Notes under the pieces: model-generated
The model's database searches: none
Seen by the model: only the letters and a program-made list of their open reading frames with translations
What the model was told of the DNA's origin: nothing
Program-made: the position numbers and the translations under genes
Shown here: positions 36,084 to 64,000 of the stretch, piece by piece
How the letters are laid out: each line of letters opens with the position of its first letter
How positions within the stretch are numbered: position 1 is the first letter of the stretch
NCBI GenBank assembly: GCA_963848295.1
Contig: CAWKDB010000002.1
Span: 864,001 to 928,000 of the forward strand
Origin: an uncultured delta proteobacterium
Lineage (GTDB): Bacteria > Myxococcota_A > Polyangia > Haliangiales > Haliangiaceae
Length of the DNA: 64,000 nucleotides
Direction: 5' to 3'

Positions 36084-36500
36084 TCAGCCCGCGGCGCGAC
36101 GCAGCTGCGCGGCCATGTCCGAAAACCGGCCGAGTCGCGCGTAGACCCGCGCGAGCCCCGACGCTACGCGCGCTTCGAACCCGGGGGTCTGACCGGCTTG
36201 TAGAAACGCCTCTTCAGCGCCGAAGAAATCGCCACCCATGACGAGCACGTCACCGAGAGTCGCGAGCATCGCCGCGGCCGAGATCCTCGAGCTCGCGCGA
36301 CCGAGGCCGGCGCGCAAGATCGTCTGTGCGCGGGGACAGTCGCCCGCCTTTGCAAGTGCGACGGCATACGCGACGCGCGCGTTGCCGAAGCTCGGCGCGA
36401 GCTCGAGTGCGGCGCGCAACGATTCTTGCGCGCTGTCGAGATCTCCATTGTCGAGCGCTTGCTTGCCGCGCTCGTAGTAGCGCCGCGCGACCGAGCTCAA
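36084..36500 (-). CDS. Tetratricopeptide repeat protein
   Basis: YYERGKQAL..GDLDSAQESLRAALELAPS; start overlaps the upstream stop. Confidence 0.75.
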   Translation of the reverse strand: MSSVARRYYERGKQALDNGDLDSAQESLRAALELAPSFGNARVAYAVALAKAGDCPRAQTILRAGLGRASSRISAAAMLATLGDVLVMGGDFFGAEEAFLQAGQTPGFEARVASGLARVYARLGRFSDMAAQLRRAAG

Positions 36501-37110
36501 TCCAGCTCCAGCAGCGAGAACCGCGCGGAGGCGTCGTCGCCGGTGCCTTCCGGTTTGTCAGGGCTTGGCGCCGCCGGCGCTGCTGAATTCGCCGGCGCCG
36601 GCGCGACGGGCGCGGCCGGAGCGGCAGCTGGTGGCACCGCGCCCCCGGGCGTCGCGGTCGGTGCACCGCGCATCGACAAGCCGCGCACCGGTGGCGGCGC
36701 TGCAAGAGGTGCAGCTGCCGGCGCGGGCGGCCGTTGCTGCAACGTGGTCTCGACCACGCGTACGCCGGCCGCCGGACGCGGCATCTCTGCGGCTTGCAGT
36801 GGCTGGCGCCCCGCGACGAGCGGCTGCATCACCCCGCCGACCCGAACGCTGACCGTGTCGCCGTCGACCGTGAACATCGCGAGCTCGGGGAAATCGAACC
36901 GGGTCTGCAGCGCACTGATCACCTGCGCGAACGTCTGGCCCTGCAGATCCGCGAGCGTCTCGGCCTGATGCACGAGCATCGGGGGGGGCCCTCGACGACG
37001 TACTCCTTGACCACGAACGTCAGGATCTCGAGCAGCGCTTCGCGACCCATCTCGGCAAACGCATCCCGCACGTTGCTGGCGAGGTCGCGAAGGTCGGGCC
37101 GAGAGGGCAT
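36497..37110 (-). CDS. Hypothetical protein; apparent frameshift in G8 run at 36981-36988
   Basis: MPSRPDLRD...EYVVEGPP joins PMLVHQAETL...RFSLLELD in the adjacent frame. Confidence 0.7.
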
Positions 37111-37125
37111 AGGCGAAGCGTATCG

Positions 37126-37806
37126 CTATAGCGTCGCGCCGTCGAGGTCGATGCCGTTGGTCTGACAACCGACAAACCGGACGCCGGTGAGGTCGGCGGT
37201 GCACAGGTTGACGCCGCGCAGATCGCACTTCACGAACGAAGCGCCGCGCAGGACCGCGCCGTACATATTGGCGCGCTTGAAGTCGACTTCGAACAGCGCC
37301 GCCCCGGTCCAGTCGGTGCGCGACAGCGACACGGTCGCTTGCTCGTAACCCTCGAACGCGACCTTGATCAGCACCGCGCCCGCGAAGTCAGCCGAGTACA
37401 GCTCGCTGTCTTTGAACGTCGTGTCTTGAATCCGCGCGCGATGGAATCGAACCCGAGCCATGCGCACCGGCCCGAGCTCGCAGCGCAGCAGCTGTGCGCC
37501 CGAGAAATCCAGCTCCGTCAGATCACAATCCTTCGCGCGCACGCGATTCCACAACGCGCCCTTCCACTGCGACGTGCGCAAGTCGCTCATCGTGAGCTCG
37601 GCGCGCTCGAGGCGCGAGTCGTCGGCATCGGCGCCGCGCAGATCGAGGCGATCGAGCGTCACGCCGTCGAGATCGACAGAGCGCAAGCCGACCGACGGCG
37701 CCGCGAAGCCCGCGACCGTGCGGCCGGCGAGCTCGTTCTCGGCGACCAGCCGTTCGAGCTGCACGCGCGATTGCACGACGCCGGCGTCTGCGCTGGTGTC
37801 ACTCAC
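37126..37806 (-). CDS. Pentapeptide repeat protein
   Basis: Periodic xDLxx/xDFxx units (LDLRGADAD, ADFAGAVL, CDLRGVNL). Confidence 0.85.
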   Translation of the reverse strand: MSDTSADAGVVQSRVQLERLVAENELAGRTVAGFAAPSVGLRSVDLDGVTLDRLDLRGADADDSRLERAELTMSDLRTSQWKGALWNRVRAKDCDLTELDFSGAQLLRCELGPVRMARVRFHRARIQDTTFKDSELYSADFAGAVLIKVAFEGYEQATVSLSRTDWTGAALFEVDFKRANMYGAVLRGASFVKCDLRGVNLCTADLTGVRFVGCQTNGIDLDGATL

Positions 37807-37824
37807 GATAGCGATCGTAGCGCG

Positions 37825-38463
37825 TTACGCGCGCCGCAACACGCCGTTGCGCATGAACCCATCGCGCAACGTCTCGCCGAGCATCGCCATCGCGCGCTCC
37901 TTGAGCTTCTCGATCATGTCGCGGCGCTGTTCCTCCGCCGCGACCCGGTCCGCGCCCGCATTCGCCGCTGCGCGGGTATCGGAGCTCGCGCTGCCTTGCT
38001 CTTCGGCCAGAACATCCGCTTCGACCGCCTCGGCTTCCGCTTCGTGCTCCTCGGCGAACGGCATCGCGCCCGCGCCGGAGGCTTTGCGATGGAGACCGCG
38101 CGCCTGCTGTGCGACGTGGGTGAGCTCGTGACCGAGCAGCGCTTGGCCGGACGCGGACGCCATCGACTTGTCGGGCGAGTTGCCCATCAAGATCATGCCG
38201 GTGCCACCGACCGTGACGGCGTACGCGTTGCGCTGCTTGTTGAACTCTTCGGCGAACTCGCCGGTGTAGATCCGGACGTGCGAGAGGTCGACGCCGAACC
38301 GCTTCTCGTAGCGCGAGCGCACGGTGTGATCGAGCGACTCGCCCTTGCCCGCGCGCTTCGAGATGATGCGCAGCAGACGCTCGGGATCGTACTTCTTCGC
38401 GAGCTCGTCGGTGAGGTCGGATTCAGGCGTGTCGCCCGGCTGCGCTTGATCGGAATCCGCCAC
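37825..38463 (-). CDS. DUF4157 (eCIS-associated metallopeptidase-like) protein
   Basis: RFGVDLSHVRIYTG..NAYAVTVG..LLGHELTHVAQQ..E.EA. Confidence 0.88.
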   Translation of the reverse strand: MADSDQAQPGDTPESDLTDELAKKYDPERLLRIISKRAGKGESLDHTVRSRYEKRFGVDLSHVRIYTGEFAEEFNKQRNAYAVTVGGTGMILMGNSPDKSMASASGQALLGHELTHVAQQARGLHRKASGAGAMPFAEEHEAEAEAVEADVLAEEQGSASSDTRAAANAGADRVAAEEQRRDMIEKLKERAMAMLGETLRDGFMRNGVLRRA

Positions 38464-38482
38464 TTGGTTCTACGATCTTACG

Positions 38483-38716
38483 CTAGGTGCCGTCGCCAGA
38501 TTCCCCCGACCCGCCGCCCTGCCACGTCGATACGTAACCCTCTGATTGTTCGTAGTATTCTGACGTCTTCTGCTGGTCGACGACCGCCGCATCGCCGCCG
38601 AGCGCCTGCTCGAGGAACTTGGTCTCGCCGAGGCAGCTGCCGCCCTTGACGCCCTTGATCTCGAACGTCACCTCGCCCTTCGCGTTGATGACGATCTCGA
38701 TGTCTTGCTTCCTCAT
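38483..38716 (-). CDS. DUF2997 family protein
   Basis: IEIVINAKGEVTFEIKGVKGGSC..LEQALG..TSEYY; ATGA overlap with DUF1257 gene. Confidence 0.82.
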   Translation of the reverse strand: MRKQDIEIVINAKGEVTFEIKGVKGGSCLGETKFLEQALGGDAAVVDQQKTSEYYEQSEGYVSTWQGGGSGESGDGT

Positions 38717-39120
38717 TCGCTCACCCACTTTCTGACGACGAGCCGGATCGAGCCGTCCTCCTCGTTGACCTCTTCTTCGACGGCGTAGCCCTTCTCTTCG
38801 CAGGCCTGTTTGACGTTGTGATACTGGTATTTTTGCGACAGCGTGTCCTTGAACTCGGCCTCCGACACGCCCTTGGTCGTCTCGACTCCCCACCAGTCGG
38901 CGACGATGTCGTAGGTGCCGTCCTGGTTGTCGACGACGCCGACGTCGTAGCGCCCCATGTCGATGCACATCGCGGCCTGCAGCTTGTCGCCGCGGTAGCC
39001 GCGCACGCTCACGGTCTGGCCTTGCTCGGCCTCGGTGAACTTGAGCTGCATGTCGGCGAGCGCCTTTTTGAGCGCCGCCAGGTTCGTCATCTTGAGAGCG
39101 CACTTCGTGAAATGCGACAT
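38713..39120 (-). CDS. DUF1257 (Ycf35-like) protein
   Basis: MSHFT..LKKALAD..GYRG..YDVG..YDIVADWW..QKY..GSIRLVVRKW. Confidence 0.85.
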   Translation of the reverse strand: MSHFTKCALKMTNLAALKKALADMQLKFTEAEQGQTVSVRGYRGDKLQAAMCIDMGRYDVGVVDNQDGTYDIVADWWGVETTKGVSEAEFKDTLSQKYQYHNVKQACEEKGYAVEEEVNEEDGSIRLVVRKWVSE

Positions 39121-39243
39121 TCGGTCGTCTCAGTATACGCAGTTTCCGGCGCGAGGCTCCCCGGGCGTCGGTACAGGTCGCGAGCGAGCTCAAACGAGCT
39201 GAGCGACACGCAACCGGTGCGGGGTGTGGCCGATAGCGGCGAC

Positions 39244-39906
39244 ATGCCGATGTCTCTCCACAGGGGCAGTTTCGATCGTGGATTCGATGCGTTTGTAGCC
39301 GCGACCCTCGGTGCCCTGCACCGCGAGCTGGAGGCGGTGGCTACGCGCTACGTCGAGCCGCGGCCAAACGTGGGAGCGCGGCGCGGCCTCTCGCTGGCGA
39401 TGTCGGCCGGCGAGAGCGCGTACGGATTCGCGATCGGAGCGATCGCGGCTGCGGTGATGCACGCCGCTCGCACGTGGCTCGGTGACGCGGCATCCACCAC
39501 CGCGGCGCACACGCTGGCCGAGCTGACCGAGCCGGCACCGCGCGCGGATCCACCACGTTATCTCGCCGACGCCGAGGCTCGGCCGCTCGTCGAACGGTTC
39601 GCCGCTCACGTATCGATGCGGTTAGCGACCGCGCGTCGCGACCTCGAACTGATTGCCGCCGCCGTCGTCGCCTCAGCGCCCGAGCGGTCGCGTGCGATCG
39701 CGATGATGTTCGATGAGCTGAGCCGCGACGGCCGGATCGCAGAGCGATTTCGCGGCGAGCTCGGAGCTGGGCTCAGTCACCTCGCTCTCGCCGTCGGCGA
39801 CGACTGCACGCCAGCGGCGAGCTCGGCGCTGTGGTGCGAGTGGTCGCGGCTCGTCCGCGGCAAGCGCGATCAAGGATCCAGACCATACATCGTCGTTGTC
39901 GGCTAG
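39244..39906 (+). CDS. Hypothetical protein
   Basis: Coherent ORF tail on the plus strand; start uncertain (39244 or 39250). Confidence 0.5.
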   Translation: MPMSLHRGSFDRGFDAFVAATLGALHRELEAVATRYVEPRPNVGARRGLSLAMSAGESAYGFAIGAIAAAVMHAARTWLGDAASTTAAHTLAELTEPAPRADPPRYLADAEARPLVERFAAHVSMRLATARRDLELIAAAVVASAPERSRAIAMMFDELSRDGRIAERFRGELGAGLSHLALAVGDDCTPAASSALWCEWSRLVRGKRDQGSRPYIVVVG

Positions 39907-40259
39907 CCGGGACGCCGGCGTGGGCAGCCGCCGGCGTGACTGAGCTGCCGCTCGGTGCGTGAGCCGCCAAAGCATCGCGCGGACTTGGTCGAGCCTGTGG
40001 TCGACGTGCGCGAAGTCGGCGGCCGAGATGTAGCGGCGCGCCTAGGCGACGCGGAGAACGGCGGTGAGCTCGCCGGCGCTGCCTGCGGCTCGGCGGCGAC
40101 CCATTGCAGACGTCGGTCGATCAACTCCGCGGCGGTCGTCGGCACACGTCGGCGGCCCTCAGCGCTCGGCGCGGGACGGGCGCGCGAGCGGCGCGAGGGC
40201 GAACGAACGCCGCCCACGAACCGACTGCGAGCGAGCCATCGTCGCCGCTGACTCCTGCC

Positions 40260-40330
40260 CGCCGCCGCTGCCGTCGCCGCTGCCGCTGCCGTTGCCGCTG
40301 CCGCTGCCGCTACCGCTACCGCTGTCGCTG
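40260..40330. repeat. Intergenic hexamer tandem repeat
   Basis: About 11 degenerate ccgctg units with no convincing host gene. Confidence 0.7.
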
Positions 40331-40387
40331 AGCCTGCCCCGCGACGGCCCCACACCTGCATTACCTCTCGCCCAAGAGGTGTGTGTC

Positions 40388-40540
40388 ATGCGCTCGTATC
40401 GAATCGCCGGCCTGATCGTTTTCATCGCGTTTGCTTCAGGATGCTTCTGGCACCACCGCCGCTATGATCGCGATCGCGACCGGCGCGTCGACGTGCGCGT
40501 GGTGCACCACGACGATCACCACGACGACCACGGGCGCTGA
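40388..40540 (+). CDS. Small His/Asp/Arg-rich lipoprotein
   Basis: GAGG upstream; MRSYRIAGLIVFIAFASGC lipobox; HHDDHHDDH. Confidence 0.6.
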   Translation: MRSYRIAGLIVFIAFASGCFWHHRRYDRDRDRRVDVRVVHHDDHHDDHGR

Positions 40541-40594
40541 CCTCGCGTAAGCGGGCGCGTCGATCGAGCGCGGGCGCTCGGTCGAGCAGATCGG

Positions 40595-42208
40595 CTACAG
40601 CTCGATCTTGCGATCGTCGTCGGAAGGCTCGGGGCCCTTGTCGCCGAGGTTCGCGGTCGGCGCGCCGTAGCGCGCCATCCAGCCGTCTTTCTTCGCCGAC
40701 TTTCCACCGCGAGACGACGCCATGCGCGCCCGGGTGCGAGCCCACTCGCGCATCTGCTCGATCATCTCGCGCATCGTGATCGCCAGCGGCACGATCTCGC
40801 CACATGTCTTCGCGAGCGCCTCGGTCGTCAGGTCGTTGCCGGTGTCGAACGCGTCGTACAACGCGGCGATCACCGCTTGCTCAAGCTCGGCGCCGGAGTA
40901 ATCGACCGTCGCGTCGATCAGCTTGTCCATGTCGAACTGGCCGGGGTCGCGCTTCTTCTTGCGCAGGTGAATGTCGAGGATCTGGCGGCGATCCTCGCGA
41001 TCCGGCAGGTCGCAGAAGAAGATCTCGTCGAACCGGCCCTTGCGCAGCAGCTCGGGCGGTAGCTGGTGGACGTTGTTCGCGGTCGCGATCACGAACACCG
41101 GCGTGGTCTTTTCCTGCAACCAGGTGATGAACGACGCGAACACGCGCGAGGTCGTCCCGCCGTCGGTCGAGCCCGACGACTGCGTCCCCGAGAAGCCTTT
41201 CTCCAATTCGTCGATCCACAGGATCGCCGGCGCGATCGCCTCGGCGGTCTTGATCACCGAGCGCATGTTCTCCTCGGAGGAGCCGACGAGGCCGCCGAAG
41301 ATCTTGCCGACATCGAGGCGCAGGAGCGGCATCTGCCACAGCGCGCCGACCGCCTTCGCGGTCAACGACTTGCCGGTGCCGGGCACGCCGATCAGCAAGA
41401 TGCCCTTCGGCAGCGGCAGGCCGAAGTCCTTCGCGCGCGAGCCGAACGCGCTGCGCCGCTTGACCAGCCAGTCCTTGAGGATCTCCATGCCGCCGACGTC
41501 GGAGAACTCTTCGCGATGCTCGTAGTACTCGAGCAGGCCGCTCTTGCGAATGATCTGCTTCTTTTCTTCCAGAATCGTTTCCAGATCGAATGTGTGGGTG
41601 CGCACGGCGCTCTTGGCGAACACGTTCTCCGCCTCGACCAACGTCAGGCCGAGCGCGCCTTCGACGACGTGCTCCATGAACGTCGGATCGCTCTCGATGA
41701 CTTGTTGAGTCGCGGCAGGGAGGTTCGGCAACACCTTGCGCGCCGCCTGCTCGATCTCGGAGCGATTCGGCAGCTCCCAGTCGAGCACCGCCGAGATGCT
41801 CTTCTCGAGCTCTGGGGGAATCTTCGTGACCGGCGACAGCACGAGCAAGCTCTTCTTGGTCTTGCGCAGCTCGGTCGCCGCGTCGCGCAGGCGGCGCACG
41901 ACCGCCGGCTCCTTGAGGAACGGATGGAAGTCGCGCAGCACGAACAAGGCGCGCCCTTCGCTGCGCAGCACGTGATCGAGCGCCTTCATCGGATCCTTGA
42001 CGTCGCGAGTGCCCTGCCCGTTCGCGATCGTCTTGAACCCCTCGGTGATCGACCAGACCTCGAGCCGCATCTCGCGCTCGACGCACAGCTTGCGCAGCGA
42101 TTCCTCGACGCGCTGCTCCTCGGGCGAGCTGATCCAGATCAGCGAATACCGCGCCTTGATCAGATCCTCGATCTCACTCTTGCTGCTGCGCTTGTGTTCG
42201 ATGGTCAT
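40595..42208 (-). CDS. Ycf46-type AAA+ ATPase
   Basis: LIKARYSLIWISSPEEQRV, DFHPFL, EEKKQIIRKSGLLEY, GVPGTGKS, WIDELEK, PPELLRKGRFDEIFF. Confidence 0.9.
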   Translation of the reverse strand: MTIEHKRSSKSEIEDLIKARYSLIWISSPEEQRVEESLRKLCVEREMRLEVWSITEGFKTIANGQGTRDVKDPMKALDHVLRSEGRALFVLRDFHPFLKEPAVVRRLRDAATELRKTKKSLLVLSPVTKIPPELEKSISAVLDWELPNRSEIEQAARKVLPNLPAATQQVIESDPTFMEHVVEGALGLTLVEAENVFAKSAVRTHTFDLETILEEKKQIIRKSGLLEYYEHREEFSDVGGMEILKDWLVKRRSAFGSRAKDFGLPLPKGILLIGVPGTGKSLTAKAVGALWQMPLLRLDVGKIFGGLVGSSEENMRSVIKTAEAIAPAILWIDELEKGFSGTQSSGSTDGGTTSRVFASFITWLQEKTTPVFVIATANNVHQLPPELLRKGRFDEIFFCDLPDREDRRQILDIHLRKKKRDPGQFDMDKLIDATVDYSGAELEQAVIAALYDAFDTGNDLTTEALAKTCGEIVPLAITMREMIEQMREWARTRARMASSRGGKSAKKDGWMARYGAPTANLGDKGPEPSDDDRKIEL

Positions 42209-42212
42209 GACA

Positions 42213-44672
42213 TCATTTCGTTTCCGCGAGCTCGCGCAGCCCGCGCAGCGCGCCCTTGGCGGTCTCCGCGTGATCGACGAGCGACTCGATCGCATCGCCG
42301 ACCGCTTGGATCGTCTCTTGATCGTCGGACTTGAGGTTTGGTAGCTCGCCCTGGACGAGCACGACGTTGTTGCGGATCTCCGACAGGATGTCGTTGATCG
42401 CGTCGTAGACATCTTTCGCGCGCTTCGCGAGCTCGGTGACCGACAGCGTCGAGCCGGCGGCGTCGATCACCGCTTCGGCCTGGGCGTCGGCGTTCGCGCG
42501 CGCACGTGCGGCTTCGGCGCGCGCCTTCTGCGCGTCGGTCTTCGCGGCATCGACCGCGGCTTCGAGCGTCTTCTGCGAGCGCTCGGCTTGCTCGGCGCGC
42601 GCGACCGCATCTGCGAGCTTGCGCTCGGCCGCTTCGCGCTCGCGTTGCGCTTCGGCCGGATCGGCGACCGCGGGCGCGGGTGCCCCCTGTGTCTTCTCGA
42701 GGTCTGCGACCTTGCGGCGGAGCTTGTCGAGCTCGCGCCGAGCGTCGTCACCGCCGGTCGATGCAGCATCGCGAGCCTTCGCCGAGGCGAGCGCCTCTTC
42801 GGCGGAGCGATGGCGCGCGACCTCGGCCTTGGCGAGCGCGTCCTGCGCGACGTTGCGCGCGCTCTCGGCGGCGAGCTTGCCGTGCACCGCTTCTTGGAGC
42901 TCGACCTCGACCTGCGCGAGCTTGCCCTCGAGTCGGCCGCGATCGCGCTCGGCGAGGTCGTATTGCTCGGACAGGCGCTCGCGATCGGCTTCGAGCTTCT
43001 TGAGCTCGACGCGGACGTCCTTCATGTCCGAGGTCAGCCGCATCATGTGATCGCCCTGGCTGCTGCCGGCGCGCGAGCCGTCGGTCTGGCTCTCGACGAG
43101 CAACCGACCGAGCCGCTTGTTCTCTTCTTCGATCGCGACGATCTGCGCGCTCATCCGCGACGAGGTCGTCGCCGCTTCGTCGCGCTCGGCCTTGAGCTGT
43201 GCGACCTGCTTGAGCGTCTTCTCCTTGTCGGCGCGCAGCTCCTTGATGACTTCTTCTTGCGAGATCAGACCGACCCGGCGCTCTTCGAGCATCCGCTCCT
43301 GCTCGTTGATCACTTCGCGCAGGTGCTCGATCTCGGTGAGCTGTTCGTTGAGCTTCTTCCAGCCCTCGTCCTTGGTGCGCGACAGCTCCATCAGCTGGCG
43401 GTTGAGGTCCTGCATGTCCTCGCGGATCTTCGCAGCGTCCTCTTGGGCGCGCGCCGCTTGGCGCTCGCGAGCCGCCATGTTCTCGGCCATCTCGCCGACT
43501 TCGCCGCGCAGCTTGTTGTGCTCGTCGCGCGTCTGTTGCAGCTCGTCGCGCAGCTGATCGGCGACGCGATCGTGGGCCGCGACCTGCTCCTCGCGATCGC
43601 TCACCGCCGCGCGCAGCTCCTCGATCCTGTCGCGCAACGTTGCCGACTCGGCGCGCACTCGCTTGCCGTCCGCGACCTCACGCTCGTAGCCCGCGTTCGC
43701 TTTCTCGACGTCGGCCTTGAGCTGCTTGATCTCGCCTTCGAGCTTGCGCGGGTCGACCTCGAGACCGAGATCGACCATGACCTTCTTCTCGCCGTCGTCG
43801 ACGCGCTGCGCCGGCGCGTTGGTCGCGACCGGACCTCCGCGCCCGAAGATCGACGGCGGGCCGGGCGCGGGCGCACCGGGCATCGCCGGCGGACCGCCAT
43901 ACGGCATGTTCGGCGCGGGCTGCGGTGCGCCGCCGCCGCCGCCACCCGGCATCGCCGGCGGACCACCGTAGGGCATGTTAGCGGCCGGCGCCGGCATCCC
44001 GGGTGGCGCACCATACGGCGCGCCTTGCACCGGCGGGCTGTTGAAACCCTGCGCTCCCGCGGCCGAGCCACCGAAGCCGCCGCGACTCTGGCCGAACAAG
44101 CTCGCGCTCTGATTGAACCCCGGCTGCGACGGCGAATTCCCCGCGCTCGGCATCGCCGGGGGACCGCCGTACGGCATGTTCGGCGCGGGCTGCGGCGCCG
44201 GCGCCATGCCCGGCGGTGGTCCGAACGCGTTGGGACCGCCGATCGGCTGCGGCGGCGGGAAGCCTTGAGGCCCCATCGGCGCGGGCGAGCCGTCGCCGCC
44301 GCGATCGAGCACCATCGTCCCGCCCTTCTTCGCCGGTGGCGTCCCGCCCTGCGGAACCTGTTGCGGCACGATGTTGACGCCGCCCTCGTCGACAAATCGC
44401 ATGACGAGTGAGCCGCACTGGATCACGTCGGTGTGGCCGAGGGCCTGCTTCTGGACCCGGACGTTGTTGAGGTGCGTGCCGTTCGCGCTGCCGAGATCCT
44501 CGACGACGAACCGGCCGTTCTCGAGGCGGAACTGCGCATGGCGGCGCGACACCATGCCGTCATCGGTCCGAACCGCACATTCGAGGCCGCGGCCGACGTA
44601 GACGATGTCGTTCGTGGGGAGCTCGACCGTCCCCTCACGGCCCTGGCTGTCCCGGAAGATCAGGCGCGCCAT
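42213..44672 (-). CDS. FHA domain protein with Pro/Gly linker and long coiled coil
   Basis: VGR..VSRRHA..DLGSANGT; about 500 aa coiled-coil-like C-terminal region. Confidence 0.88.
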   Translation of the reverse strand: MARLIFRDSQGREGTVELPTNDIVYVGRGLECAVRTDDGMVSRRHAQFRLENGRFVVEDLGSANGTHLNNVRVQKQALGHTDVIQCGSLVMRFVDEGGVNIVPQQVPQGGTPPAKKGGTMVLDRGGDGSPAPMGPQGFPPPQPIGGPNAFGPPPGMAPAPQPAPNMPYGGPPAMPSAGNSPSQPGFNQSASLFGQSRGGFGGSAAGAQGFNSPPVQGAPYGAPPGMPAPAANMPYGGPPAMPGGGGGGAPQPAPNMPYGGPPAMPGAPAPGPPSIFGRGGPVATNAPAQRVDDGEKKVMVDLGLEVDPRKLEGEIKQLKADVEKANAGYEREVADGKRVRAESATLRDRIEELRAAVSDREEQVAAHDRVADQLRDELQQTRDEHNKLRGEVGEMAENMAARERQAARAQEDAAKIREDMQDLNRQLMELSRTKDEGWKKLNEQLTEIEHLREVINEQERMLEERRVGLISQEEVIKELRADKEKTLKQVAQLKAERDEAATTSSRMSAQIVAIEEENKRLGRLLVESQTDGSRAGSSQGDHMMRLTSDMKDVRVELKKLEADRERLSEQYDLAERDRGRLEGKLAQVEVELQEAVHGKLAAESARNVAQDALAKAEVARHRSAEEALASAKARDAASTGGDDARRELDKLRRKVADLEKTQGAPAPAVADPAEAQREREAAERKLADAVARAEQAERSQKTLEAAVDAAKTDAQKARAEAARARANADAQAEAVIDAAGSTLSVTELAKRAKDVYDAINDILSEIRNNVVLVQGELPNLKSDDQETIQAVGDAIESLVDHAETAKGALRGLRELAETK

Positions 44673-44744: not shown

Positions 44745-45206
44745 CTAATCGCGCTTGAACACCGCTTCGGTGTTGCCGACGCGGATGATGTCGCCGATCT
44801 CGAGCGTCTTCTTCGGGACCTTGTGACCGTTGACGTACACGCCGTTCGTCGAGCCGAGATCGGCGAGCTCGTAGTTGCCGTCGACCTTGCGAATGCCGGC
44901 GTGCTTGCGCGACACCGCCGGATCGGCGAGCACCACGGTGTTGCCTGCGACCGAGCCGATCGTCGTGACTTCGTCGTTGAGCACGAGCGTCTGGTTCGCC
45001 ATCGGGCCCAAGATGAACTCGAGCCGCGCACCTGGCGACCAATTGCAGAACATGCACTTCTGCCACTGCGGCAGCATCGCGCGGCGGCAGCCGCCGCACA
45101 TGCGCTGACCAGGCGGCGGCGCGCTCTTCTTCGCAACGACGATGAGGAAGATCAGGATCAGCAGCGCTGCCCCGACGATGACCCCGACTAGCGCGCCGGT
45201 CGACAC
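44745..45206 (-). CDS. Membrane-anchored zinc-ribbon + FHA protein
   Basis: N-terminal TM, CGGC..CMFC, VSRKHA..DLGSTNGVYVNG. Confidence 0.85.
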   Translation of the reverse strand: MSTGALVGVIVGAALLILIFLIVVAKKSAPPPGQRMCGGCRRAMLPQWQKCMFCNWSPGARLEFILGPMANQTLVLNDEVTTIGSVAGNTVVLADPAVSRKHAGIRKVDGNYELADLGSTNGVYVNGHKVPKKTLEIGDIIRVGNTEAVFKRD

Positions 45207-45216
45207 GGATCTTGAC

Positions 45217-47756: not shown

Positions 47757-49289
<1,533 letters not shown>

Positions 49290-53661: not shown

Positions 53662-53843
53662 CAGGGTTGAAAGCGGCCCTGGATGAATTTGCCGCACTTG
53701 CTGCACGAGATCCGCGTCGCGTTATCGACCTCTTCGATCGTCAGCGGACGATGATGACAAAACGGGCACGCGATGTCGCTCGGCCGTCCCGCCGCGACCA
53801 TATCGAGCACGTCTTGCCACGCGATCAAGGCTTCCTCGTCCAC
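53661..53843 (-). CDS. Small zinc-ribbon protein
   Basis: AAGGA RBS before GTG; CPFC..CSKC; stop overlaps the gp25 start. Confidence 0.7.
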
Positions 53844-57024: not shown

Positions 57025-57028
57025 GCGA

Positions 57029-57751
57029 TCACCCGATGTTGATCTTCGATCCGTCGTAGTTGCTCGGCGAGCCCGACGTGAGCTTCAGCGCCGAGCTGCC
57101 GTCCATCTTGATCTCGCCGCCGGCTTTGACGTCGATCGTCGTCTTCGCATTGATCTTGATGTTCTGTTCGGCCGTGACTTTCAGCGCGCCGTTCTTGCAG
57201 GTGATTTGCATCTTGCCCTCCATCGTGGAGATCGAGACGCCGGTATCACCCGACATGGGCGGCTTGTAGACCGCGCACACGTTCGGCCCCGCACCGTCGG
57301 ACGCGAAGTTGCCGATGCCGATCATGTTCTTGCCGGTCTTGTCGGCGAACACGACCTTGATCTTGCCCGAGTCCTCGAGCAGCATGCGATGGCCGCTGCG
57401 GCTGCGATAACCCCGGAAGTTGTTCTTGCCGTCTTCGTTGGTCTCGGGCGAGAAGTCCGTCGTGCTCCACACGCCGCCGAGCACGACCGGCTGGGTGTAG
57501 TCGCCGGAGATGAACATCACGACGACGACGTCGTCGATATCGGGCAGCGTGTACCAGCCGAACTTCTTGCCGCTCATCGGCGTGACCAGCTGGGCCCAGT
57601 GCGTCTGATCGACGTCGCCGCCGTCGATCCACGGGAAGCGAACCTTGATGCGATCGAGGTTGTCCGGATCCTGATTCTGGCAGACCACCCCGAACTGCAG
57701 TCCGTACTGGACGTTGTCGAGGGATTCGCGGCGTGGTCCGCCGGCGCGCAC
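57029..57751 (-). CDS. Second spike protein (gp5 OB-fold/baseplate V), short form
   Basis: NQDPDNLDRIKVRFPW, WAQLVTPMSG..LPDIDDVVVVMF..PVVLGGVW, RSRSGH. Confidence 0.85.
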   Translation of the reverse strand: MRAGGPRRESLDNVQYGLQFGVVCQNQDPDNLDRIKVRFPWIDGGDVDQTHWAQLVTPMSGKKFGWYTLPDIDDVVVVMFISGDYTQPVVLGGVWSTTDFSPETNEDGKNNFRGYRSRSGHRMLLEDSGKIKVVFADKTGKNMIGIGNFASDGAGPNVCAVYKPPMSGDTGVSISTMEGKMQITCKNGALKVTAEQNIKINAKTTIDVKAGGEIKMDGSSALKLTSGSPSNYDGSKINIG

Positions 57752-58812
57752 TAGCCCGCCTCTTGCGCATCTCGCGCGAGCCGCAAGGTCGTCGTATAGC
57801 CCCCGTCCTTCGACTTGTTCGCGCTGTGCCGATGGGTGAGGCCCATGATGTAGTATTTGCCGTTAAACGGATCGCCGCCGGCGTTGTTCGAGTTCGCCGT
57901 GATCGTGATGACCTTGCCGAGATCGAACGCGGGGGTGCCGGTCACCTCGGCTTCGCCGGTGACGTAGTTCATCGACAGGTCGACGAGGCGCGCCTTCGCG
58001 AGCGCATCGGCCTCTTCCTTGCTCCACACCGGCTGATCGACGAGGAACGTCTCTTCGTCGCCGAGCGAGTTCGACGCGTCGGTCGCGGTTTGCTTGCCGA
58101 GCTTCGATCCATCGGGTGACGCCTCACCGGTGATCAGCTCCTTGGTCTCGGGGTTCCACGCCTTGACCGTGACCTTCTTGACGACCGTGTGCGATGACAG
58201 CCGCGGCGTGAACGAGCGCAGCTGTTCGCCTTGGCTCGATTGGTCGACGGTGAGGGTGATGTTGAGCTCTTCCCACTGCGGCTGCTTGCAGTGGACGGTG
58301 TCGCCGATGCACCACACGTGGCAGCCCATGCGAGCCGCGCGCATCCGCAGGAACTCGAGGTCGCTGAGGTTGTGCTGGTAGACGTGCTTGTACGTGATCG
58401 ACTTTTCGTGCTTCCAGTCGAGCGTCAGCCCGGAATCGCCGACGACCTGGCTCAGGATCGCCTCGTCGGTCTTGTCGGTGAACGTCAGCGACTTCCGCTT
58501 GCGCAGCAGGCGGTGCAGCTTGTTCATGCAGCGGATCGTGATCCGCGACTTCTCGCCGCCCTTGTAGACCGGCTCGACCCCGACGATGTCGCCGGAGTAG
58601 ACCAGCGTACCCGGCTTCGCGCCGACCTTGATCTCGACCTTGTCGCCGACCTTCTGGACCGAGTAGGTGTCGCCTTGGTTCGACAGTACGATCCGCGCCA
58701 TGTCCGGTTGGTACATGTCGCGATCGACCGTGTACCCCAGGAAGTGATCGTCCGGCACCTGCTTGCCGTTGAGGTAGATATCGACGTTTGGTGATGCTGC
58801 GAGGTTCGCCAC
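57751..58812 (-). CDS. Phage late control D / gp27-like hub (N-terminal half of VgrG)
   Basis: LHRLLRKRKSLTF, YQHNLSDLEFLRMRAARMG, VTVKAWNP, FNGKYYI...H. Confidence 0.85.
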   Translation of the reverse strand: MANLAASPNVDIYLNGKQVPDDHFLGYTVDRDMYQPDMARIVLSNQGDTYSVQKVGDKVEIKVGAKPGTLVYSGDIVGVEPVYKGGEKSRITIRCMNKLHRLLRKRKSLTFTDKTDEAILSQVVGDSGLTLDWKHEKSITYKHVYQHNLSDLEFLRMRAARMGCHVWCIGDTVHCKQPQWEELNITLTVDQSSQGEQLRSFTPRLSSHTVVKKVTVKAWNPETKELITGEASPDGSKLGKQTATDASNSLGDEETFLVDQPVWSKEEADALAKARLVDLSMNYVTGEAEVTGTPAFDLGKVITITANSNNAGGDPFNGKYYIMGLTHRHSANKSKDGGYTTTLRLARDAQEAG

Positions 58813-58815
58813 TGG

Positions 58816-59463
58816 CTAGCCCCCGCCCCCGGGAGCTGGAGCGCCGCCTGGGGCCGAACCGCCACTCGGCGCTGTCCCCCCGCCTGGCGTTGGCGCGCCG
58901 CCGCCCGGACTCGCCGCCCCCGCCGCCTTCGCAGCGGACACGACATCGGCTTCCTTGAGCTTGACCGTGCAGGTCGCGCGCAACGGCACGCCGTCGGTCG
59001 TCATCATCGTGTACTTCGTCGACAGCGACTCGATCACGCAGCGGAACGTCGGCATGCCCGAGCCCCAGACCACCACGCAAAGACGCGGCCGACGCTTGTT
59101 CTCGTCGGTCGACGTCGGGTCGATGACCGAGGCCAGCGTCTCGAGGTCCGCGATCGCTTGACTCACCGTCTTCTTGCCCGCCATCCCGCCGGTCTCGTAG
59201 CCGTCGAACAGCATGTCGACGCTCATCGAGCGGCCTTCGGCGCCGGTGAACTCGAGGTGGATGCCGTTGTTGTTCGCCTGGTTCGCCTGGTTGACCTTGT
59301 TCCACGGGATGTTCTTGTCGACCTGCAGCTCTTTCGGGTTGTAGTGCGCCTCGACGTGCAACCCATTTGGCATCGCGCCATCCGGGTCCGTGTCGAGACT
59401 TCCGATCGTGAGCTTTGCCGTGGCAGGCTGAAATGGCGCGGTCGGCGTGGTCGATTGAGTCAT
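58816..59463 (-). CDS. CIS tube initiator (Afp7-like), no LysM domain seen
   Basis: YNPKEL..W..LEFTG..LFD..RP..VVWG..CVIESL..G.PLRAT..VKLKE. Confidence 0.82.
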   Translation of the reverse strand: MTQSTTPTAPFQPATAKLTIGSLDTDPDGAMPNGLHVEAHYNPKELQVDKNIPWNKVNQANQANNNGIHLEFTGAEGRSMSVDMLFDGYETGGMAGKKTVSQAIADLETLASVIDPTSTDENKRRPRLCVVVWGSGMPTFRCVIESLSTKYTMMTTDGVPLRATCTVKLKEADVVSAAKAAGAASPGGGAPTPGGGTAPSGGSAPGGAPAPGGGG

Positions 59464-62400
59464 ATGTGCGGCTCCCCGTTACGTGCGCGCGCGACGTCCA
59501 TGAGCGCGAGCACTTCGCGATAGACGTCATTCGCGATGCGATCGACGTCGACTTGTTGATCCGAGGCCTGGGTTCCCGACGGCGCGGCAAGCGGCGGCGC
59601 TGCACTCGACGGCGAGCGCGTCGAGGCTGCGATCTGCGTCGCCGGAGCCGAGCTGACGAGCGTGAGCTCGGCGAGCGAGATGCCATCCGACGGCGCGCTG
59701 CGAGCTTCGAGCATCTTGCGTGCGGCCGCCTCGAACCACGGCGGGATTTCGACCTCGCCGCCGCCATGACGCCCGGTAGGCCGGCCGGTGCGAACGAACT
59801 CGTTCGCGGCGGTGGGCACGCGCGACATCGCGCCGGCCGAGGACGACGACGATGAGGTTGACGACGACAAAGAAGACGACGCCCCCTGCGCGGCGGGCGG
59901 AGCGACGTACGACGCGAGCGCTTCACCGGCGCGTGCCGACAGCACGCTGAGGCCAGGCCGTGCATCGGCGCCGAGCGTTTCGCCGCGCACGAACGCGGGC
60001 TCGAAGCTGCGCTGGCGGCTCGCGGTCGTCGTGCGGTCGGCGGCGGCGACGCGAGCATCGTGCTCGGCGGCTTGGCCGGTCGACAGCGTTTCGTCGCCAA
60101 CGCCGATCACGACCGGCAGCACATCCCACGCGATCGCGGCGCGTTCGCGGGGTGACAACACATCGTCACCGCGGCCCGCCAGCGCGAGCGCGCGCGCGGC
60201 GCGAGCAGCGGGTGCACTGGATCGCCCGAGCGTCGATTGGCTGAGCGCGAGATAGAGGGCCTCGAACTTCGCGCGCCGACCGGTCGGAACCAGCGACGCA
60301 GCGGCATCGAGCACGTCGGCTTCGGCCAGCTCGCGACGGCGGTCGCCACCGACGCGTGGGTCGGTCCTGAACGGCGAGGCCGCGCCGGACTTCGCAACGG
60401 TCGCGCCGGCGTTCGCAGCGGTCGCGCCGGCGTTCGCAGCGGTCGCGCCGGCGTTCGCAGCGGTCGCGCCGGCGTTCGCAGCGGTCGCGCCGGCGGTCGC
60501 AGCGGTCGCGCCGGCGGTCGCAGCCGTCGCGCCGGCGGTCGCAGCCGTCGCGCCGGCGGTCGCAGCCGTCGGGTCCGAAGGCGCGCCGAGTGTGCGCGGA
60601 TACGTGCCGAGCTCGACCACCGCTTGCGCCGCGAGCAACTCGAGCGCGGCGACCGACATCGAGTGCGCCCCGTCGGGAGCCGCGGCGGCCATTCCGAGCG
60701 CGCCGACGGTCGAAGCCGGCCACAGGAATGCGCCGCGCGGCATCCGGCGTGCGACGCCAAACGCCGTCGTCGCCGGCTGCGCGTCGGGCGGCTGCGCGTC
60801 GGGCGGTTGCGCCTCGGGCGGCCGCGCCTCGGGCGGCCGCGGCTCGCCTGCGTCGCCGACGGGATACGCGGTGATCGCGCGATCGCCGTGGCGCTGCGCG
60901 TCGAGCGCCATCATCTCGACGAACGTGCGATTGACCGTGCTCGCCATCGCGGACAGCTGGCCGGGGCCGACGAGCGACAACCGCGCCGCTTGCGCTGCTT
61001 CCGCCGGGCCGAGCCCGTAGACGCGGGCCGCGAGCACGAGCTCGGGCATCACGAAATCGAAGGCGAGGTCCGACGTCGAGCGCTCGTGCGCGACGGCGTA
61101 GCCCGCGGCGCGATCCGCCACCATACCCGGCGCGGCCCACGATGAACCGCCGGCGTCCGAGCCATCGCCGATCATCGGCTGGGTGAGCGTGTCGAGCATC
61201 GCGCGCGCGGCGGTCGGAGCAGGCGCGGACGTCGGTGCGGCAGCCCTAGCTGCCGGCGAGGCCTGCCAAGCGAGCAGCGCGCTGTGCAGCGCGAGCAACG
61301 GCGCATGCTCGATTTGTTCGCCGTGCACGGGGAGCGTCGGCGCCTGACCGGCGGCATCGCCGACGTCGACGGCCGGGGCAGCGGACTCGTCCCCAGAGAC
61401 ATACGTCGCCTCCCAGCTCCGCGCGCTCGGCGCATCCGCAGCGGCAACCTCGGTCGCGGGCGCCAGGAATCCGGTGAGATAACTCGCCGAGAGCTCACCG
61501 CCAAACAGCGCGCGCACGTCGAAGCTCGGCGCCGAGCCGATCGGCAGGACGTGGCGGAGTGCGGGCGCGAACGGCGACGACGCGAGTTGCGCCGAGAGAC
61601 CGGCGCCCGGTGCGCTCGGGACGGTGCGTGCGATCGCATCGGCGTGCGTGGCGCGATCCGCAGCGGGTGCGTCGATTCTCGGTGTCTGGGTCTGGGTCGG
61701 CGCGAACGGCTTGGCGGCCGCGGGACGCGGTGGAACCCGCGTGCGGCCAGCGGCCTGCGCGATCGAAGCAAACATGTCGTCCGGCGTCTCGGCATCGTCG
61801 GCGATCCGCACGGTCTGCGCGGCGGTCGGCGCGGCGTCCGGCGCGACGAACACGGCCGCCGGAGCCGAAGCGGCGAGCGCCCCGAGCGCGAGCGGCGCCG
61901 CGGTCGCGGGAAGAACAGGACCGACCGAACCGCCCGCGAGCGTGCGGAGCGTGCGCGGCGCAGCCCCGGCAAATCGCGCGAGCCAGCGATCGGCCCACGC
62001 GACGTGGCCGAGCGCGGCCGGCTTCGAGGCAGCGGTCGCCGCCAGCGCGGTGGCCGGTGGAGCTGATGCAGCGAACGGCAGCGGCAGGCGTGGCGCGCCG
62101 ATCGGCTGGCCGCCGGCACGTGACGGAGGCGTACGATCGATCATCGACACCAGGCCGCCGAGCCCGGCGGGCATGACAAGACGCGGTCCGCGCGAGGATT
62201 CGATCGTGCCGCCGGTGGCGGCGGTCATCGCGACGAGCTCGGCCGCGCGCAACGCATCGCCGAGCTCGCCGATCGCCTGCACCGCGCGATCCGGGCGCTG
62301 CGACAGGTAGCTCGCGAGGCCCGGCGGCAGCGCGGCGATCGCCTGCGCGAGCTCGCCCTGCCCCGCCGGCGCGATCGCCGCGGGTGTAGAGGCCGGTGCT

Positions 62401-63434
62401 CGCAGCGACTCCGGGCTGCGGCGGACATCGCGCGCGGCCGCATCGCGCGCGGCCGCATCGCGCGCCTGGTCATGCAACCGGGTCGTCTCGCGCCGCTGCT
62501 GCGATTCGCGGGTGTCGCGCGCGTCACTCGCGCGCTGCCGCAGCTCCGCTTCGATCCGTTGTTGCGCGGCGCTAGCCTGCGCGACCGCAGCCGCCGAGAT
62601 CGCGGCGCGCTGGACGTCGGCGACCCGCACGCGCTGAGCCGCGAGATCCTCGATCACGCGCTGATTCGATTCAGCCGGCGAACCTTCGGGCGAGGCGTCG
62701 TCGGGAGCCCGCGGGCTCGGCGGCGTCACGAGCTCGGGCGCGGCGAGCGACGTGCGCGTCGGAGCCACCTCGGTGGGCGAACCGGCGCGCTGCAGCAGGG
62801 TCGTTAGCAGCGAGCGCAAGCCCGGCGACGCCGAGGCCGACATCGTCGGGGATGCGAGCGGCGCCATCGCGCGCGACATCACCTCGGCCGCATTCGCGGC
62901 CGCGAACGGCACGAGCGGCGAGTACGCAGCACCCGACGCGTGGGGCGGCGCGACCGACAACGATGGCGCGATGTACTCGTGCAACGCCATCGGCACGTTG
63001 CTCGCGCGGGTCGCCGGCGAGACATACGTTCCGCGCGTGGTCAGGAGCGTCGGCGCTTCGTCGCTCGTCGCTTGCGCACCGGCGGCTTGACGCGCCGCCG
63101 CCATCCAATCGATCTCGTCCTGGTACCACGGCCGCGGGAACACCCACGACACCGGCTTGCCACCGTGCTCGTTGGCGCCGCTGGTCTGCATCTTCGAGAA
63201 CATCCGCAGCGACGGCGAGCGTTGCGCCGACTCGAGCCACGGCGTGACGAGGCGATCGACAAAGCCGAGCGTGCGCAGCGGCCGCACGCGTTGCGCGCCG
63301 GCTTCCGGAGCCCACCGCTCGGCGTGGCGATTCGCGACGTGCACCGCCGCTCCGCCGGCACGGGTCGCAAACGCAGGCGCTGCAAGCGCCGACGCTAGTG
63401 CCCGTGGTTCGCCGTCGTTTGATCCGGGCGCCAT
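59460..63434 (-). CDS. Large Ala/Pro-rich CIS protein
   Basis: 1324 aa ORF tightly coupled between tube and initiator; C-terminal DVDRIANDVYREVL..ARARNG. Confidence 0.7.
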   Translation of the reverse strand: MAPGSNDGEPRALASALAAPAFATRAGGAAVHVANRHAERWAPEAGAQRVRPLRTLGFVDRLVTPWLESAQRSPSLRMFSKMQTSGANEHGGKPVSWVFPRPWYQDEIDWMAAARQAAGAQATSDEAPTLLTTRGTYVSPATRASNVPMALHEYIAPSLSVAPPHASGAAYSPLVPFAAANAAEVMSRAMAPLASPTMSASASPGLRSLLTTLLQRAGSPTEVAPTRTSLAAPELVTPPSPRAPDDASPEGSPAESNQRVIEDLAAQRVRVADVQRAAISAAAVAQASAAQQRIEAELRQRASDARDTRESQQRRETTRLHDQARDAAARDAAARDVRRSPESLRAPASTPAAIAPAGQGELAQAIAALPPGLASYLSQRPDRAVQAIGELGDALRAAELVAMTAATGGTIESSRGPRLVMPAGLGGLVSMIDRTPPSRAGGQPIGAPRLPLPFAASAPPATALAATAASKPAALGHVAWADRWLARFAGAAPRTLRTLAGGSVGPVLPATAAPLALGALAASAPAAVFVAPDAAPTAAQTVRIADDAETPDDMFASIAQAAGRTRVPPRPAAAKPFAPTQTQTPRIDAPAADRATHADAIARTVPSAPGAGLSAQLASSPFAPALRHVLPIGSAPSFDVRALFGGELSASYLTGFLAPATEVAAADAPSARSWEATYVSGDESAAPAVDVGDAAGQAPTLPVHGEQIEHAPLLALHSALLAWQASPAARAAAPTSAPAPTAARAMLDTLTQPMIGDGSDAGGSSWAAPGMVADRAAGYAVAHERSTSDLAFDFVMPELVLAARVYGLGPAEAAQAARLSLVGPGQLSAMASTVNRTFVEMMALDAQRHGDRAITAYPVGDAGEPRPPEARPPEAQPPDAQPPDAQPATTAFGVARRMPRGAFLWPASTVGALGMAAAAPDGAHSMSVAALELLAAQAVVELGTYPRTLGAPSDPTAATAGATAATAGATAATAGATAATAGATAANAGATAANAGATAANAGATAANAGATVAKSGAASPFRTDPRVGGDRRRELAEADVLDAAASLVPTGRRAKFEALYLALSQSTLGRSSAPAARAARALALAGRGDDVLSPRERAAIAWDVLPVVIGVGDETLSTGQAAEHDARVAAADRTTTASRQRSFEPAFVRGETLGADARPGLSVLSARAGEALASYVAPPAAQGASSSLSSSTSSSSSSAGAMSRVPTAANEFVRTGRPTGRHGGGEVEIPPWFEAAARKMLEARSAPSDGISLAELTLVSSAPATQIAASTRSPSSAAPPLAAPSGTQASDQQVDVDRIANDVYREVLALMDVARARNGEPHI
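60392..60570. repeat. 21-bp coding tandem repeat (ATAATAG/ATAANAG)
   Basis: cgcagcggtcgcgccggcg(g/t)t repeated about 8 times. Confidence 0.85.
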
Positions 63435-63437
63435 GGC

Positions 63438-63923
63438 TCAGCCGAACTTGATCCCGTTGTGAGCGATCTCGAGCGTCTCGATCGAGAGCTCGCTCTTAGA
63501 AGCGTCGAACTCGGAGATCTCCCACTTGCACGGCCAGCCTTGGTAGAACGTCCAGGTCGCCCCGACCGGCTTCATCGCGGTGTTGAGCTGGACGATCGTG
63601 CCCGTGGGGATCCGGTACATCAGGCTAGGGTCGCCACTCAGCCAGTTCTGACGCCAGGTCAGCAACGCGCTCGACCCGGTGAACCCTTGCTTGAGCACGA
63701 TGTTCGACCACTTCGTCGAGCCGACCAGTTGGAACGTCGTGTCGTTCGCGCCGCCTTCTTTGACCGCGATCGTCTCGGTCTCGTAGCGCAGGCCGCTCAC
63801 GCTCTTGAAGAACGCATCGCCCGTTGTGCCGCCCTTGAGGTTGAGCTGAACCTTGAAGCAAAAGACGGGTAGCGGATCTCTGCGGTTCGCGGGGTTGTTG
63901 GGATCTGAGGGGGTGGTCGCCAT
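63438..63923 (-). CDS. gp19-like CIS tail tube protein
   Basis: DPLPVFCFKV, FKSVSGL, EGG.N, NIVLKQG, GWPCKW, SIETLEIAH; GGAG RBS. Confidence 0.92.
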   Translation of the reverse strand: MATTPSDPNNPANRRDPLPVFCFKVQLNLKGGTTGDAFFKSVSGLRYETETIAVKEGGANDTTFQLVGSTKWSNIVLKQGFTGSSALLTWRQNWLSGDPSLMYRIPTGTIVQLNTAMKPVGATWTFYQGWPCKWEISEFDASKSELSIETLEIAHNGIKFG

Positions 63924-63942
63924 GTCGTGCTCCTGGGAGGCT

Positions 63943-64000
63943 CTAGGTCGCAGCGTCGGGCCCGGCCATGGTCTGTACAAGGGAGATCATGATGAACTCG
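63943..64000 (-). CDS. Probable tail sheath protein C-terminus (truncated by window end)
   Basis: EFIMISLVQTMAG...stop resembles the sheath (PA)EFI ending and lies directly before the tube gene. Confidence 0.55.
   Translation of the reverse strand, partial: EFIMISLVQTMAGPDAAT

Follow-up and report, generated by a model that had tools for sequence, protein, structure and literature searches.

What is a contractile injection system (CIS) doing in one operon with four FHA-domain proteins and an AAA+ ATPase of the Ycf46 type? The question is raised by positions 36,084-64,000 of a 64,000-nt stretch of DNA (hereafter, the window) from an uncultured delta proteobacterium of the Haliangiaceae (GCA_963848295.1, contig CAWKDB010000002.1, 864,001-928,000). 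The locus encodes a complete sheath-tube-baseplate set that includes a TssG-like wedge protein and a TssK-like protein, here called h510; in many families, h510 is followed by FHA1 and by a bitopic protein that joins a VWA domain, a transmembrane helix and an FHA domain (VWA-TM-FHA). FHA4, Ycf46, DUF1257 and DUF2997 form one module that tracks this single-copy CIS, and Afp15-type ATPases and large DUF4157 proteins are encoded at various other sites in the genome. The reading we prefer, with a probability of roughly 0.38 for the whole mechanism, is that of a CIS that would be retained in the cell, docked at the inner membrane and served by a phospho-gated Ycf46 remodeller.

As a first-pass annotation of this DNA had proposed, the CIS genes run on the same strand into FHA, Ycf46, DUF1257, DUF2997, DUF4157, pentapeptide and TPR genes, an arrangement borne out by the Pfam and NCBIfam profile searches from which genes in the window were assigned. 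All belong to a single minus-strand operon that starts outside the window with a Pvc16_N cap, sheath 1, a tube, a chaperone-like gene, DUF6760 and sheath 2, and that proceeds from the CIS genes through h510, the four FHA genes, Ycf46, DUF1257, DUF2997, DUF4157, the pentapeptide gene and a gene of unassigned function to the TPR gene. The tube, sheath, Afp7, Afp8, Afp9, Afp11 and Afp16 counterparts, the core set of CISs and extracellular CISs (eCISs) (Chen 2019), thus stand together in one locus. Short junctions, also noted in the first pass, hold for 20 of the 22 gene junctions (at most 98 nt, with start codons as picked in this analysis), but a 1474-nt gap separates Ycf46 from DUF1257. A promoter and terminator scan gave results at chance level. 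Close homologs bear Kofleriaceae names, which points to a Haliangiales myxobacterium as the host. In the order of transcription, the genes and other features are as follows:

63943..64000, minus strand, 3' end of the sheath 2 gene; the operon continues beyond the window
63438..63923, minus strand, tube protein of the gp19 family (PF06841)
59460..63434, minus strand, 1324-aa Ala/Pro-rich protein with no Pfam match, in the tape-measure slot and of presumed tape-measure role; a long gene holds the same slot in relatives
58816..59463, minus strand, CIS_tube, Afp7-like tube initiator (PF19266)
57751..58812, minus strand, GPD baseplate hub, the gp27-like half of Afp8 (PF05954)
57029..57751, minus strand, gp5/Vgr OB-fold spike 1 (PF04717)
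54013..57024, minus strand, gp5/Vgr OB-fold spike 2 with a long Gly/Ser-rich tail (PF04717)
53661..53843, minus strand, 60-aa Cys4 zinc-ribbon protein in the usual PAAR slot
53233..53661, minus strand, gp25 wedge (PF04965)
50178..53218, minus strand, baseplate J (by profiles), about 1012 aa in relatives, with two frameshifts here
49293..50178, minus strand, PASTA and Tail_P2_I (TssG-like) wedge protein (by profiles), with one frameshift here
47757..49289, minus strand, h510, 510 aa, with a TssK-like shoulder, a helical neck and a CBM6/35-like jelly-roll head
46749..47705, minus strand, FHA1, with an N-terminal helix, Pro/Gln linker, zinc ribbon, K-T-x-x-hydrophobic motif (Thr208) and Arg-less FHA domain
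45217..46749, minus strand, FHA2, with a signal-like N-terminus, periplasmic VWA domain, transmembrane helix, K-T motif and Arg-less FHA domain
44745..45206, minus strand, FHA3, with an N-terminal transmembrane helix, zinc ribbon and Arg-less FHA domain
42213..44672, minus strand, FHA4, with a canonical FHA domain (G-R, S-R-x-H, N), Pro linker and long coiled coil
40595..42208, minus strand, Ycf46-type AAA+ ATPase of the CIS-associated subfamily, with intact Walker A/B motifs and Arg finger
39121..40594, no strand, genome-specific insertion with a dispersed non-coding repeat, outside the system
38713..39120, minus strand, DUF1257 (PF06868)
38483..38716, minus strand, DUF2997 (PF11211)
37825..38463, minus strand, small stand-alone DUF4157 (eCIS_core) protein with HExxH (PF13699)
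37126..37806, minus strand, pentapeptide-repeat protein (PF00805), whose orthologs adjoin FHA4 in distant genomes
36497..37109, minus strand, conserved protein of unassigned function with a C-terminal RFxLLELD-type motif and one frameshift here
36084..36500, minus strand, TPR protein, the final gene of the operon

The linkage was traced in 185,579 species genomes, which yielded 407 stretches with an h510 relative, the best 80 of them being used (46-88% identity, a kin-biased set). A phylum sample was drawn evenly as 300 Myxococcota genomes, with h510 serving as the CIS marker; the locus sets behind the different counts overlap in part and are not independent. Operon order is kept in seven of the eight first relatives (one of the seven, G027, is rearranged, and several contigs end early), and no such cluster was found in the stretch examined of relative G036. 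Among the 47 close-relative loci from the best 80 stretches that have at least 7.5 kb of downstream sequence, 39 carry a same-strand Ycf46 gene after the CIS; one of the misses, L160, has the Ycf46 block upstream instead. Because order is kept to this extent, the linkage between CIS and Ycf46 is not due to chance. Across the phylum sample, full-length h510 occurs in 77 of the 300 genomes, from 24 families. The pairing of CIS and FHA genes is conserved in many myxobacterial families: at 36 loci outside the window's own family, the baseplate genes lead straight into FHA genes in 23, and Ycf46 follows the FHA block in none. The system therefore consists of two modules, one of the CIS with FHA1 and the VWA-TM-FHA protein and one of FHA4, Ycf46, DUF1257 and DUF2997. 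Of 16 distant loci, 12 share the upstream CIS order and 4 have a split operon; FHA4 precedes Ycf46 in 18 of 22 distant genomes, compared with 0 of 17 other Ycf46 loci.

The Ycf46 subfamily and h510 also occur in the same genomes: both in 74 of the 300, h510 alone in 3, the ATPase alone in 1 and neither in 222. Both are missing from nearer families of the class and present in distant families. Losses coincide, with h510 in 10/14 and Ycf46 in 9/14 genomes of family f34, and the single genome of family f44 without h510 also lacks the Ycf46 subfamily. In G083 and G328, the Ycf46-DUF1257-DUF2997 genes stand one gene ahead of the cap and sheath genes; this order is a second, independent Ycf46-CIS linkage, in two distant families. 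Thus the blocks are not unlinked in relatives, and the outcome that would have refuted the first pass did not occur; its suggestion that DUF4157 ties the accessory block to the particle fared worse, as a search of the distant Ycf46 modules turned up no DUF4157. The CISs of G083 and G328 (L043, L076-L078) are divergent, with h510 at 27-29% identity, DUF4157 after the tape-measure-slot gene and a second GPD, and G083 has a kinase and an FHA1-like gene downstream of its divergent CIS. The cultured Haliangium ochraceum encodes h510 and is a candidate carrier of the system. A functional tie of FHA1 and FHA2 to the CIS is very probable, and one of the Ycf46 module is probable.

The CIS-linked ATPase is an AAA+ protein of about 500 aa with DUF1257 and DUF2997 neighbours. 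No Ycf46 model in Pfam or NCBIfam fired on the window protein, and we take it to be of the Ycf46 type from its architecture and its neighbours. Homologs at least 55% identical form one branch (31 of 48 rows, support 100/100), a result that is partly circular, as members were picked by similarity. The Afp15 AAA+ ATPase was not found in the CIS locus. Six genes for WHD-AAA (Afp15-like) ATPases are scattered elsewhere in the genome (contigs C10 and C11), one of which is 28% identical to Ycf46 over 173 aa, and at least one WHD-AAA gene is present in 76 of the 77 h510 genomes. Ycf46 was for this reason rejected as a replacement for Afp15; as Afp15-type ATPases exist elsewhere in the genome, it is an extra ATPase. 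WHD-AAA copies often number 2-9 per CIS-bearing Myxococcota genome, which suggests cargo-specific loaders. An atlas look-up of DUF1257 added no function. A C-terminal R-x-[LI]-E-[LIM] motif (40595-40620) ends most Ycf46 orthologs of the CIS subfamily (70 rows listed), and the 36497-37109 protein ends in RFxLLE[LI]D (36497-36530) in 13 loci. The cap, encoded outside the window (L001:6829-6870), has a nearly terminal R-x-[LI]-D-L in 4/5. These three ends are similar and may be a common tag for docking, e.g., to the TPR protein.

In the particle itself, the N-terminus of h510 is weakly Cis13-like in a profile search, and its fold has TssK as the top matches (E 5e-7, TM about 0.3, 8-11% identity), a likeness at the fold level only. 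The best sequence matches of the sheath among solved sheaths are 8bky and 8bl4, which we take to be those of the Streptomyces cytoplasmic CIS; by this measure the sheath appears closer to cytoplasmic CISs than to PVC/Afp. The wedge genes match TIGR02242 and TIGR02243. The Cys4 zinc-ribbon gene precedes gp25 in all 59 loci with sequence upstream of gp25; its product falls in unnamed Myxococcota clusters (the look-up added no function) and may be a PAAR substitute or spike adaptor. PAAR is not found in the CIS locus, and a single PAAR match lies on another contig. In many distant genomes, the zinc-ribbon gene directly follows GPD with no spike gene in the operon, and spikes are therefore encoded elsewhere. 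Spike 2 has a Gly/Ser/Thr repeat tail of about 700 aa (54013-56200), and its total length ranges from about 230 to more than 1000 aa in relatives. Other CIS parts are dispersed in the genome as well, namely, orphan tubes, a spike, the PAAR match and two 2200-aa proteins (L198:1682-8443, L199:3709-10308). These last carry two DUF4157 domains each and no recognised toxin domain, are followed by small or duplicated immunity-like genes and are candidate cargo.

The case for phospho-control starts from FHA4 and FHA1. The motif K-T-x-x-hydrophobic resembles the usual FHA ligand. It stands just ahead of the FHA domain of FHA1, within a variable linker, with Thr208 invariant in 30/30 orthologs, and it recurs in the 12 Haliangiales-type FHA2 rows and is absent from the other 13. 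The pocket of FHA4 (G-R, S-R-x-H, N) is intact in 27/27 orthologs, and its residues match the Arg/Arg/Asn contacts of DgcB (PMC6733907, available in part). FHA2 and FHA3 have transmembrane helices, and a VWA domain is found in 13 of 25 FHA2 orthologs, with no VWA match in the window copy itself. Further candidates for the circuit lie just past the operon:

34549-35985, minus strand, kinase directly after TPR (by profiles), part of a three-gene insert
31661..32500, plus strand, PP2C phosphatase (by profiles), convergent with the operon
30946..31626, plus strand, gene of unassigned function between kinase A and PP2C
29464..30949 (29603-30949 in the profile listing), plus strand, kinase A, a Ser/Thr kinase with a C-terminal transmembrane helix, its N-lobe in another frame here

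The kinase adjoining TPR, which the first pass had named, is ruled out as the regulator: it belongs to a non-conserved insert of three genes that is missing from relatives G014, G029 and G026 (G005 has a 52%-identical counterpart at another site). The conserved pair is instead kinase A and PP2C. Kinase A, a membrane kinase of the convergent operon without an FHA domain, has three K-T-x-x-hydrophobic motifs in a Pro/Gln linker, a context in which the motif occurs in 2 of the genome's 185 kinases and in 10 of its 4933 other proteins; a related linker motif is kept in 5/5 kinase A orthologs. The second kinase with such a motif (K/R-T-x-x-hydrophobic) in a Pro/Gln context is at 13418-15799 of the window, 14 kb from kinase A. 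The PP2C gene beside kinase A is convergent with the TPR gene and at most 8 kb from it in 53 of the 65 genomes that have both of these genes (51/63 without G010 and G379); in 10 of the 12 misses, they lie on different contigs.

Put together, FHA1 and the VWA-TM-FHA protein would form a membrane dock, with the periplasmic VWA domain as anchor or sensor. Kinase A would phosphorylate FHA1 and FHA2 and the threonines of its own linker, FHA4 would read these marks and PP2C would erase them, and this switch would recruit Ycf46 to remodel the CIS. Cargo would be loaded by the Afp15-type ATPases, and Ycf46, as the second ATPase, would work like ClpV and free or take apart docked or contracted particles. 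Membrane docking, already suggested in the first pass, is made plausible by the transmembrane helices of FHA2 and FHA3 and by TssK-like h510, docking itself being what we infer from them; the odds for it are about even. Phosphothreonine control of the CIS, the other half of that suggestion, gains from the FHA4 pocket and loses with the kinase first named for it, and we put it forward tentatively, at a little under even odds. In its broadest form, the proposal would describe an ancient, hitherto unrecognised CIS class, found in roughly one in four of the Myxococcota sampled, with a particle of fixed length that has converged on T6SS (type VI secretion system) behaviour, with TssK-like docking on a VWA-TM-FHA complex, firing by threonine phosphorylation via K-T-x-x-hydrophobic motifs and recycling by a Ycf46-DUF1257-DUF2997 unfoldase; so wide a generalisation is unlikely.

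A number of results weigh against this mechanism, in which docking and phospho-control are both predicted from genes and sequence. The head of h510 has a CBM6/35-like carbohydrate-binding-module fold, as would suit a released particle with a short fibre that binds glycans, and TssK-like fibres have been described for eCISs (eBAP3; PMC12923769). A released extracellular CIS for predation, with h510 as such a fibre and the FHA/Ycf46 block serving assembly, cargo loading or exit, would also suit the PASTA domain on the wedge protein, the long gene in the tape-measure slot, the orphan spike and tube genes, the two DUF4157 proteins of 2200 aa with small genes behind them, and the interpretation of the Haliangiales CIS as a weapon for predation (10.1101/2024.12.19.629468, available in part). 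However, along its full length h510 keeps 39-49% identity in most distant families, which seems unlike a fast-changing receptor fibre; two transmembrane genes are predicted from the shared operon to be co-transcribed with h510, no lysis gene was recognised nearby and the sheath appears closer to cytoplasmic CISs; we hold release to be unlikely. Phosphorylation may also be the part that is wrong. FHA1-3 lack the phosphate-binding Arg in 76 of 79 domains (Arg 3, Lys 3; Ser 79/79; a few rows are mis-sorted among FHA1-3, with the total unchanged), compared with Arg in 36 of 53 FHA domains genome-wide (6 unaligned). The K-T-x-x-hydrophobic motif was defined post hoc from these same proteins and, as it alternates hydrophobic residues, could be a structural beta-strand. 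Clear orthologs of kinase A outside its own family were not found in the phylum sample (nine candidates scored per genome), Thr208 of FHA1 is conserved far beyond that range, and the distant PP2Cs beside FHA4 are reciprocal best hits in 0/7 cases, for which their orthology was dropped. A CIS docked by FHA1-3 as phosphorylation-independent scaffolds, with the kinase and PP2C incidental or regulating something else, would be at home in a genome with 185 kinases, and other myxobacterial machines, e.g., Kil, carry many FHA proteins (PMC8460266, available in part). Against it stand the invariant FHA4 pocket, the repetition of the same motif in the disordered linker of the FHA-less kinase A and the adjacency of PP2C, and we rate it as improbable.

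The tie to Ycf46 has its own difficulties. Besides the lack of Ycf46 behind the FHA block outside the family, 13 of those 36 loci have no FHA gene behind the baseplate genes, G083 and G328 have no FHA4 before Ycf46, and the co-occurrence count is inflated by kinship, with both thresholds set after the data were seen. Ycf46 matches occur in 226/301 genomes, the Ycf46-DUF1257-DUF2997 trio is widespread without any CIS, and full-length Ycf46-like ATPases are encoded in 57 phage records, mostly of Mycobacterium and Pseudomonas phages (about 33% identity in the matches shown). FHA4-Ycf46-DUF1257-DUF2997 could thus be a separate, general remodelling or stress module that is co-inherited with the CIS and joined to its operon only in some lineages, as would agree with its being unlinked in most distant families and with the counts of DUF1257 and DUF2997 in published eCIS loci (1 and 0), which show no enrichment. 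Two different linked arrangements, the coincident losses in f34 and f44 and the absence of both partners from nearer relatives in the class when distant families have both argue otherwise, and this explanation appears more improbable still. Docking with phospho-gated remodelling by Ycf46 is the account that we retain.

Comparison with known systems places the locus between several of them. The Haliangiales CIS of a 2024 preprint is very likely the same system: it has ten syntenic CIS genes and a truncated spike, and its region encodes a conserved beta-helix protein and an AAA+ ATPase termed 'recycling'. The preprint's main text, as far as available, has no FHA, forkhead, Ycf46, CIS-related kinase, docking or phospho model, and its figure or supplements may show such genes (10.1101/2024.12.19.629468). 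The CIS core is thus already noted, and the Ycf46-CIS link was not found in print; literature searches, with most subscription papers outside their coverage, likewise returned no FHA/Ycf46 accessory block beside a CIS. The gene for CisA presumably follows the wedge genes. The Streptomyces cytoplasmic CIS with CisA (PMC12237407) presumably has the closest solved sheaths and shares the TIGR02242/TIGR02243 wedge genes, DUF6760 and a bitopic membrane gene behind the wedge genes. The bitopic protein here is oriented the other way, with VWA at the periplasmic N-terminus and FHA at the cytoplasmic C-terminus, and the locus further has two sheaths, a split spike, a TssK-like protein and the Ycf46 module. 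A Streptomyces intracellular CIS has a tape-measure-like effector with a DUF4157 partner (PMC13277306, available in part), to which the 1324-aa gene and the small DUF4157 protein may be analogous. T6SSs with PpkA/PppA/Fha (PMC6653060, available in part) share the TssK/TssG-like baseplate, membrane kinase, PP2C, FHA protein and a second AAA+ ATPase as candidate recycler, but here the sheath is phage type with a Pvc16 cap and the ATPase is Ycf46 type, not ClpV. A TssC-type sheath (PF05943) and TssM (IcmF_C) were not found in this 85%-complete genome (TssJ and TssL were not searched), and a T6SS was rejected on these results.

eCIS lineage II with eBAP3 fibres (PMC6899500, available in part; PMC12923769) has in common with the locus the core set, DUF4157, a split gp27/gp5 and a TssK-like fibre encoded behind Tail_P2_I; in contrast, the present locus is conserved and single copy, has no Afp15 or PAAR and adds the FHA/VWA membrane block and the Ycf46 module. 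In the available parts of the eCIStem survey (Geller 2021, PMC8213781), no eCIS is called in Haliangium (0/2 genomes), and DUF1257 is found once and DUF2997 never at eCIS loci. FHA is an enriched 'shell' domain there (odds ratio 5.6, 35 counts, 4 phyla; supplements), and FHA beside a CIS is therefore not unprecedented. Its FHA-bearing loci, in Roseiflexus, Thermogemmatispora, Caballeronia and Nitrosospira, have no Ycf46 block, and their FHA proteins, known from a domain listing, may or may not be homologs of FHA1-4; the Roseiflexus CIS is intracellular (PMC12998442, available in part). H. ochraceum has DUF4157-type toxins (PMC3482391, available in part), and marine Myxococcota highly express eCIS tube genes, whose CIS type may differ from the present one (PMC11937823, available in part). 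Finally, the trio of Ycf46, DUF1257 (Ycf35) and DUF2997 is also that of cyanobacteria and plastids, with all AAA+ motifs intact, but the ATPase here belongs to a distinct subfamily, tied to a CIS and preceded by a gene for an FHA-coiled-coil protein. In cyanobacteria, Ycf46 is linked to stress or CO2 response.

Five single-base frameshifts are private to this assembly, with intact genes in relatives, and kinase A has one as well. As the essential genes secA and dnaE also seem split in this genome (judged by their expected lengths), these frameshifts are most likely sequencing errors, and a decaying pseudogene cluster was ruled out on the same grounds. The Ycf46-DUF1257 gap is at most 443 nt in 37 of 38 relative loci; its extra sequence here has no Rfam match or homolog in relatives and contains a multi-copy, non-coding repeat with hexamer microsatellites that is dispersed across the genome; a gene, RNA or insertion sequence was rejected as its identity. 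Downstream, about 38-41 kb past the window, lie an operon for type II secretion and a small cluster of bacterial-microcompartment shell genes, both recognised by eye from translations.

To our knowledge, the killing tools of Haliangiales have not been identified; the CIS marker is in 77/300 Myxococcota genomes, yet eCIStem called none in Haliangium. The order is among the most active predicted soil predators (10.1101/2024.12.19.629468, available in part). The model is testable, as cultured H. ochraceum has the marker gene and single residues can be addressed, i.e., Thr208 of FHA1, the FHA4 Arg and the Walker B motif of Ycf46. If the model is true, the boundary between T6SSs and eCISs would become less sharp, as this CIS would be docked at a membrane, phospho-gated and recyclable. 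Ycf46, DUF1257 and DUF2997 range from plastids to phages, and we know of no substrate for them; the link to a CIS gives a concrete candidate substrate for all three and would give the Ycf46 family a testable job. On the broadest reading above, the CIS would be the first defined substrate of the Ycf46 family and, for the uncultured soil myxobacteria, a new predation weapon.

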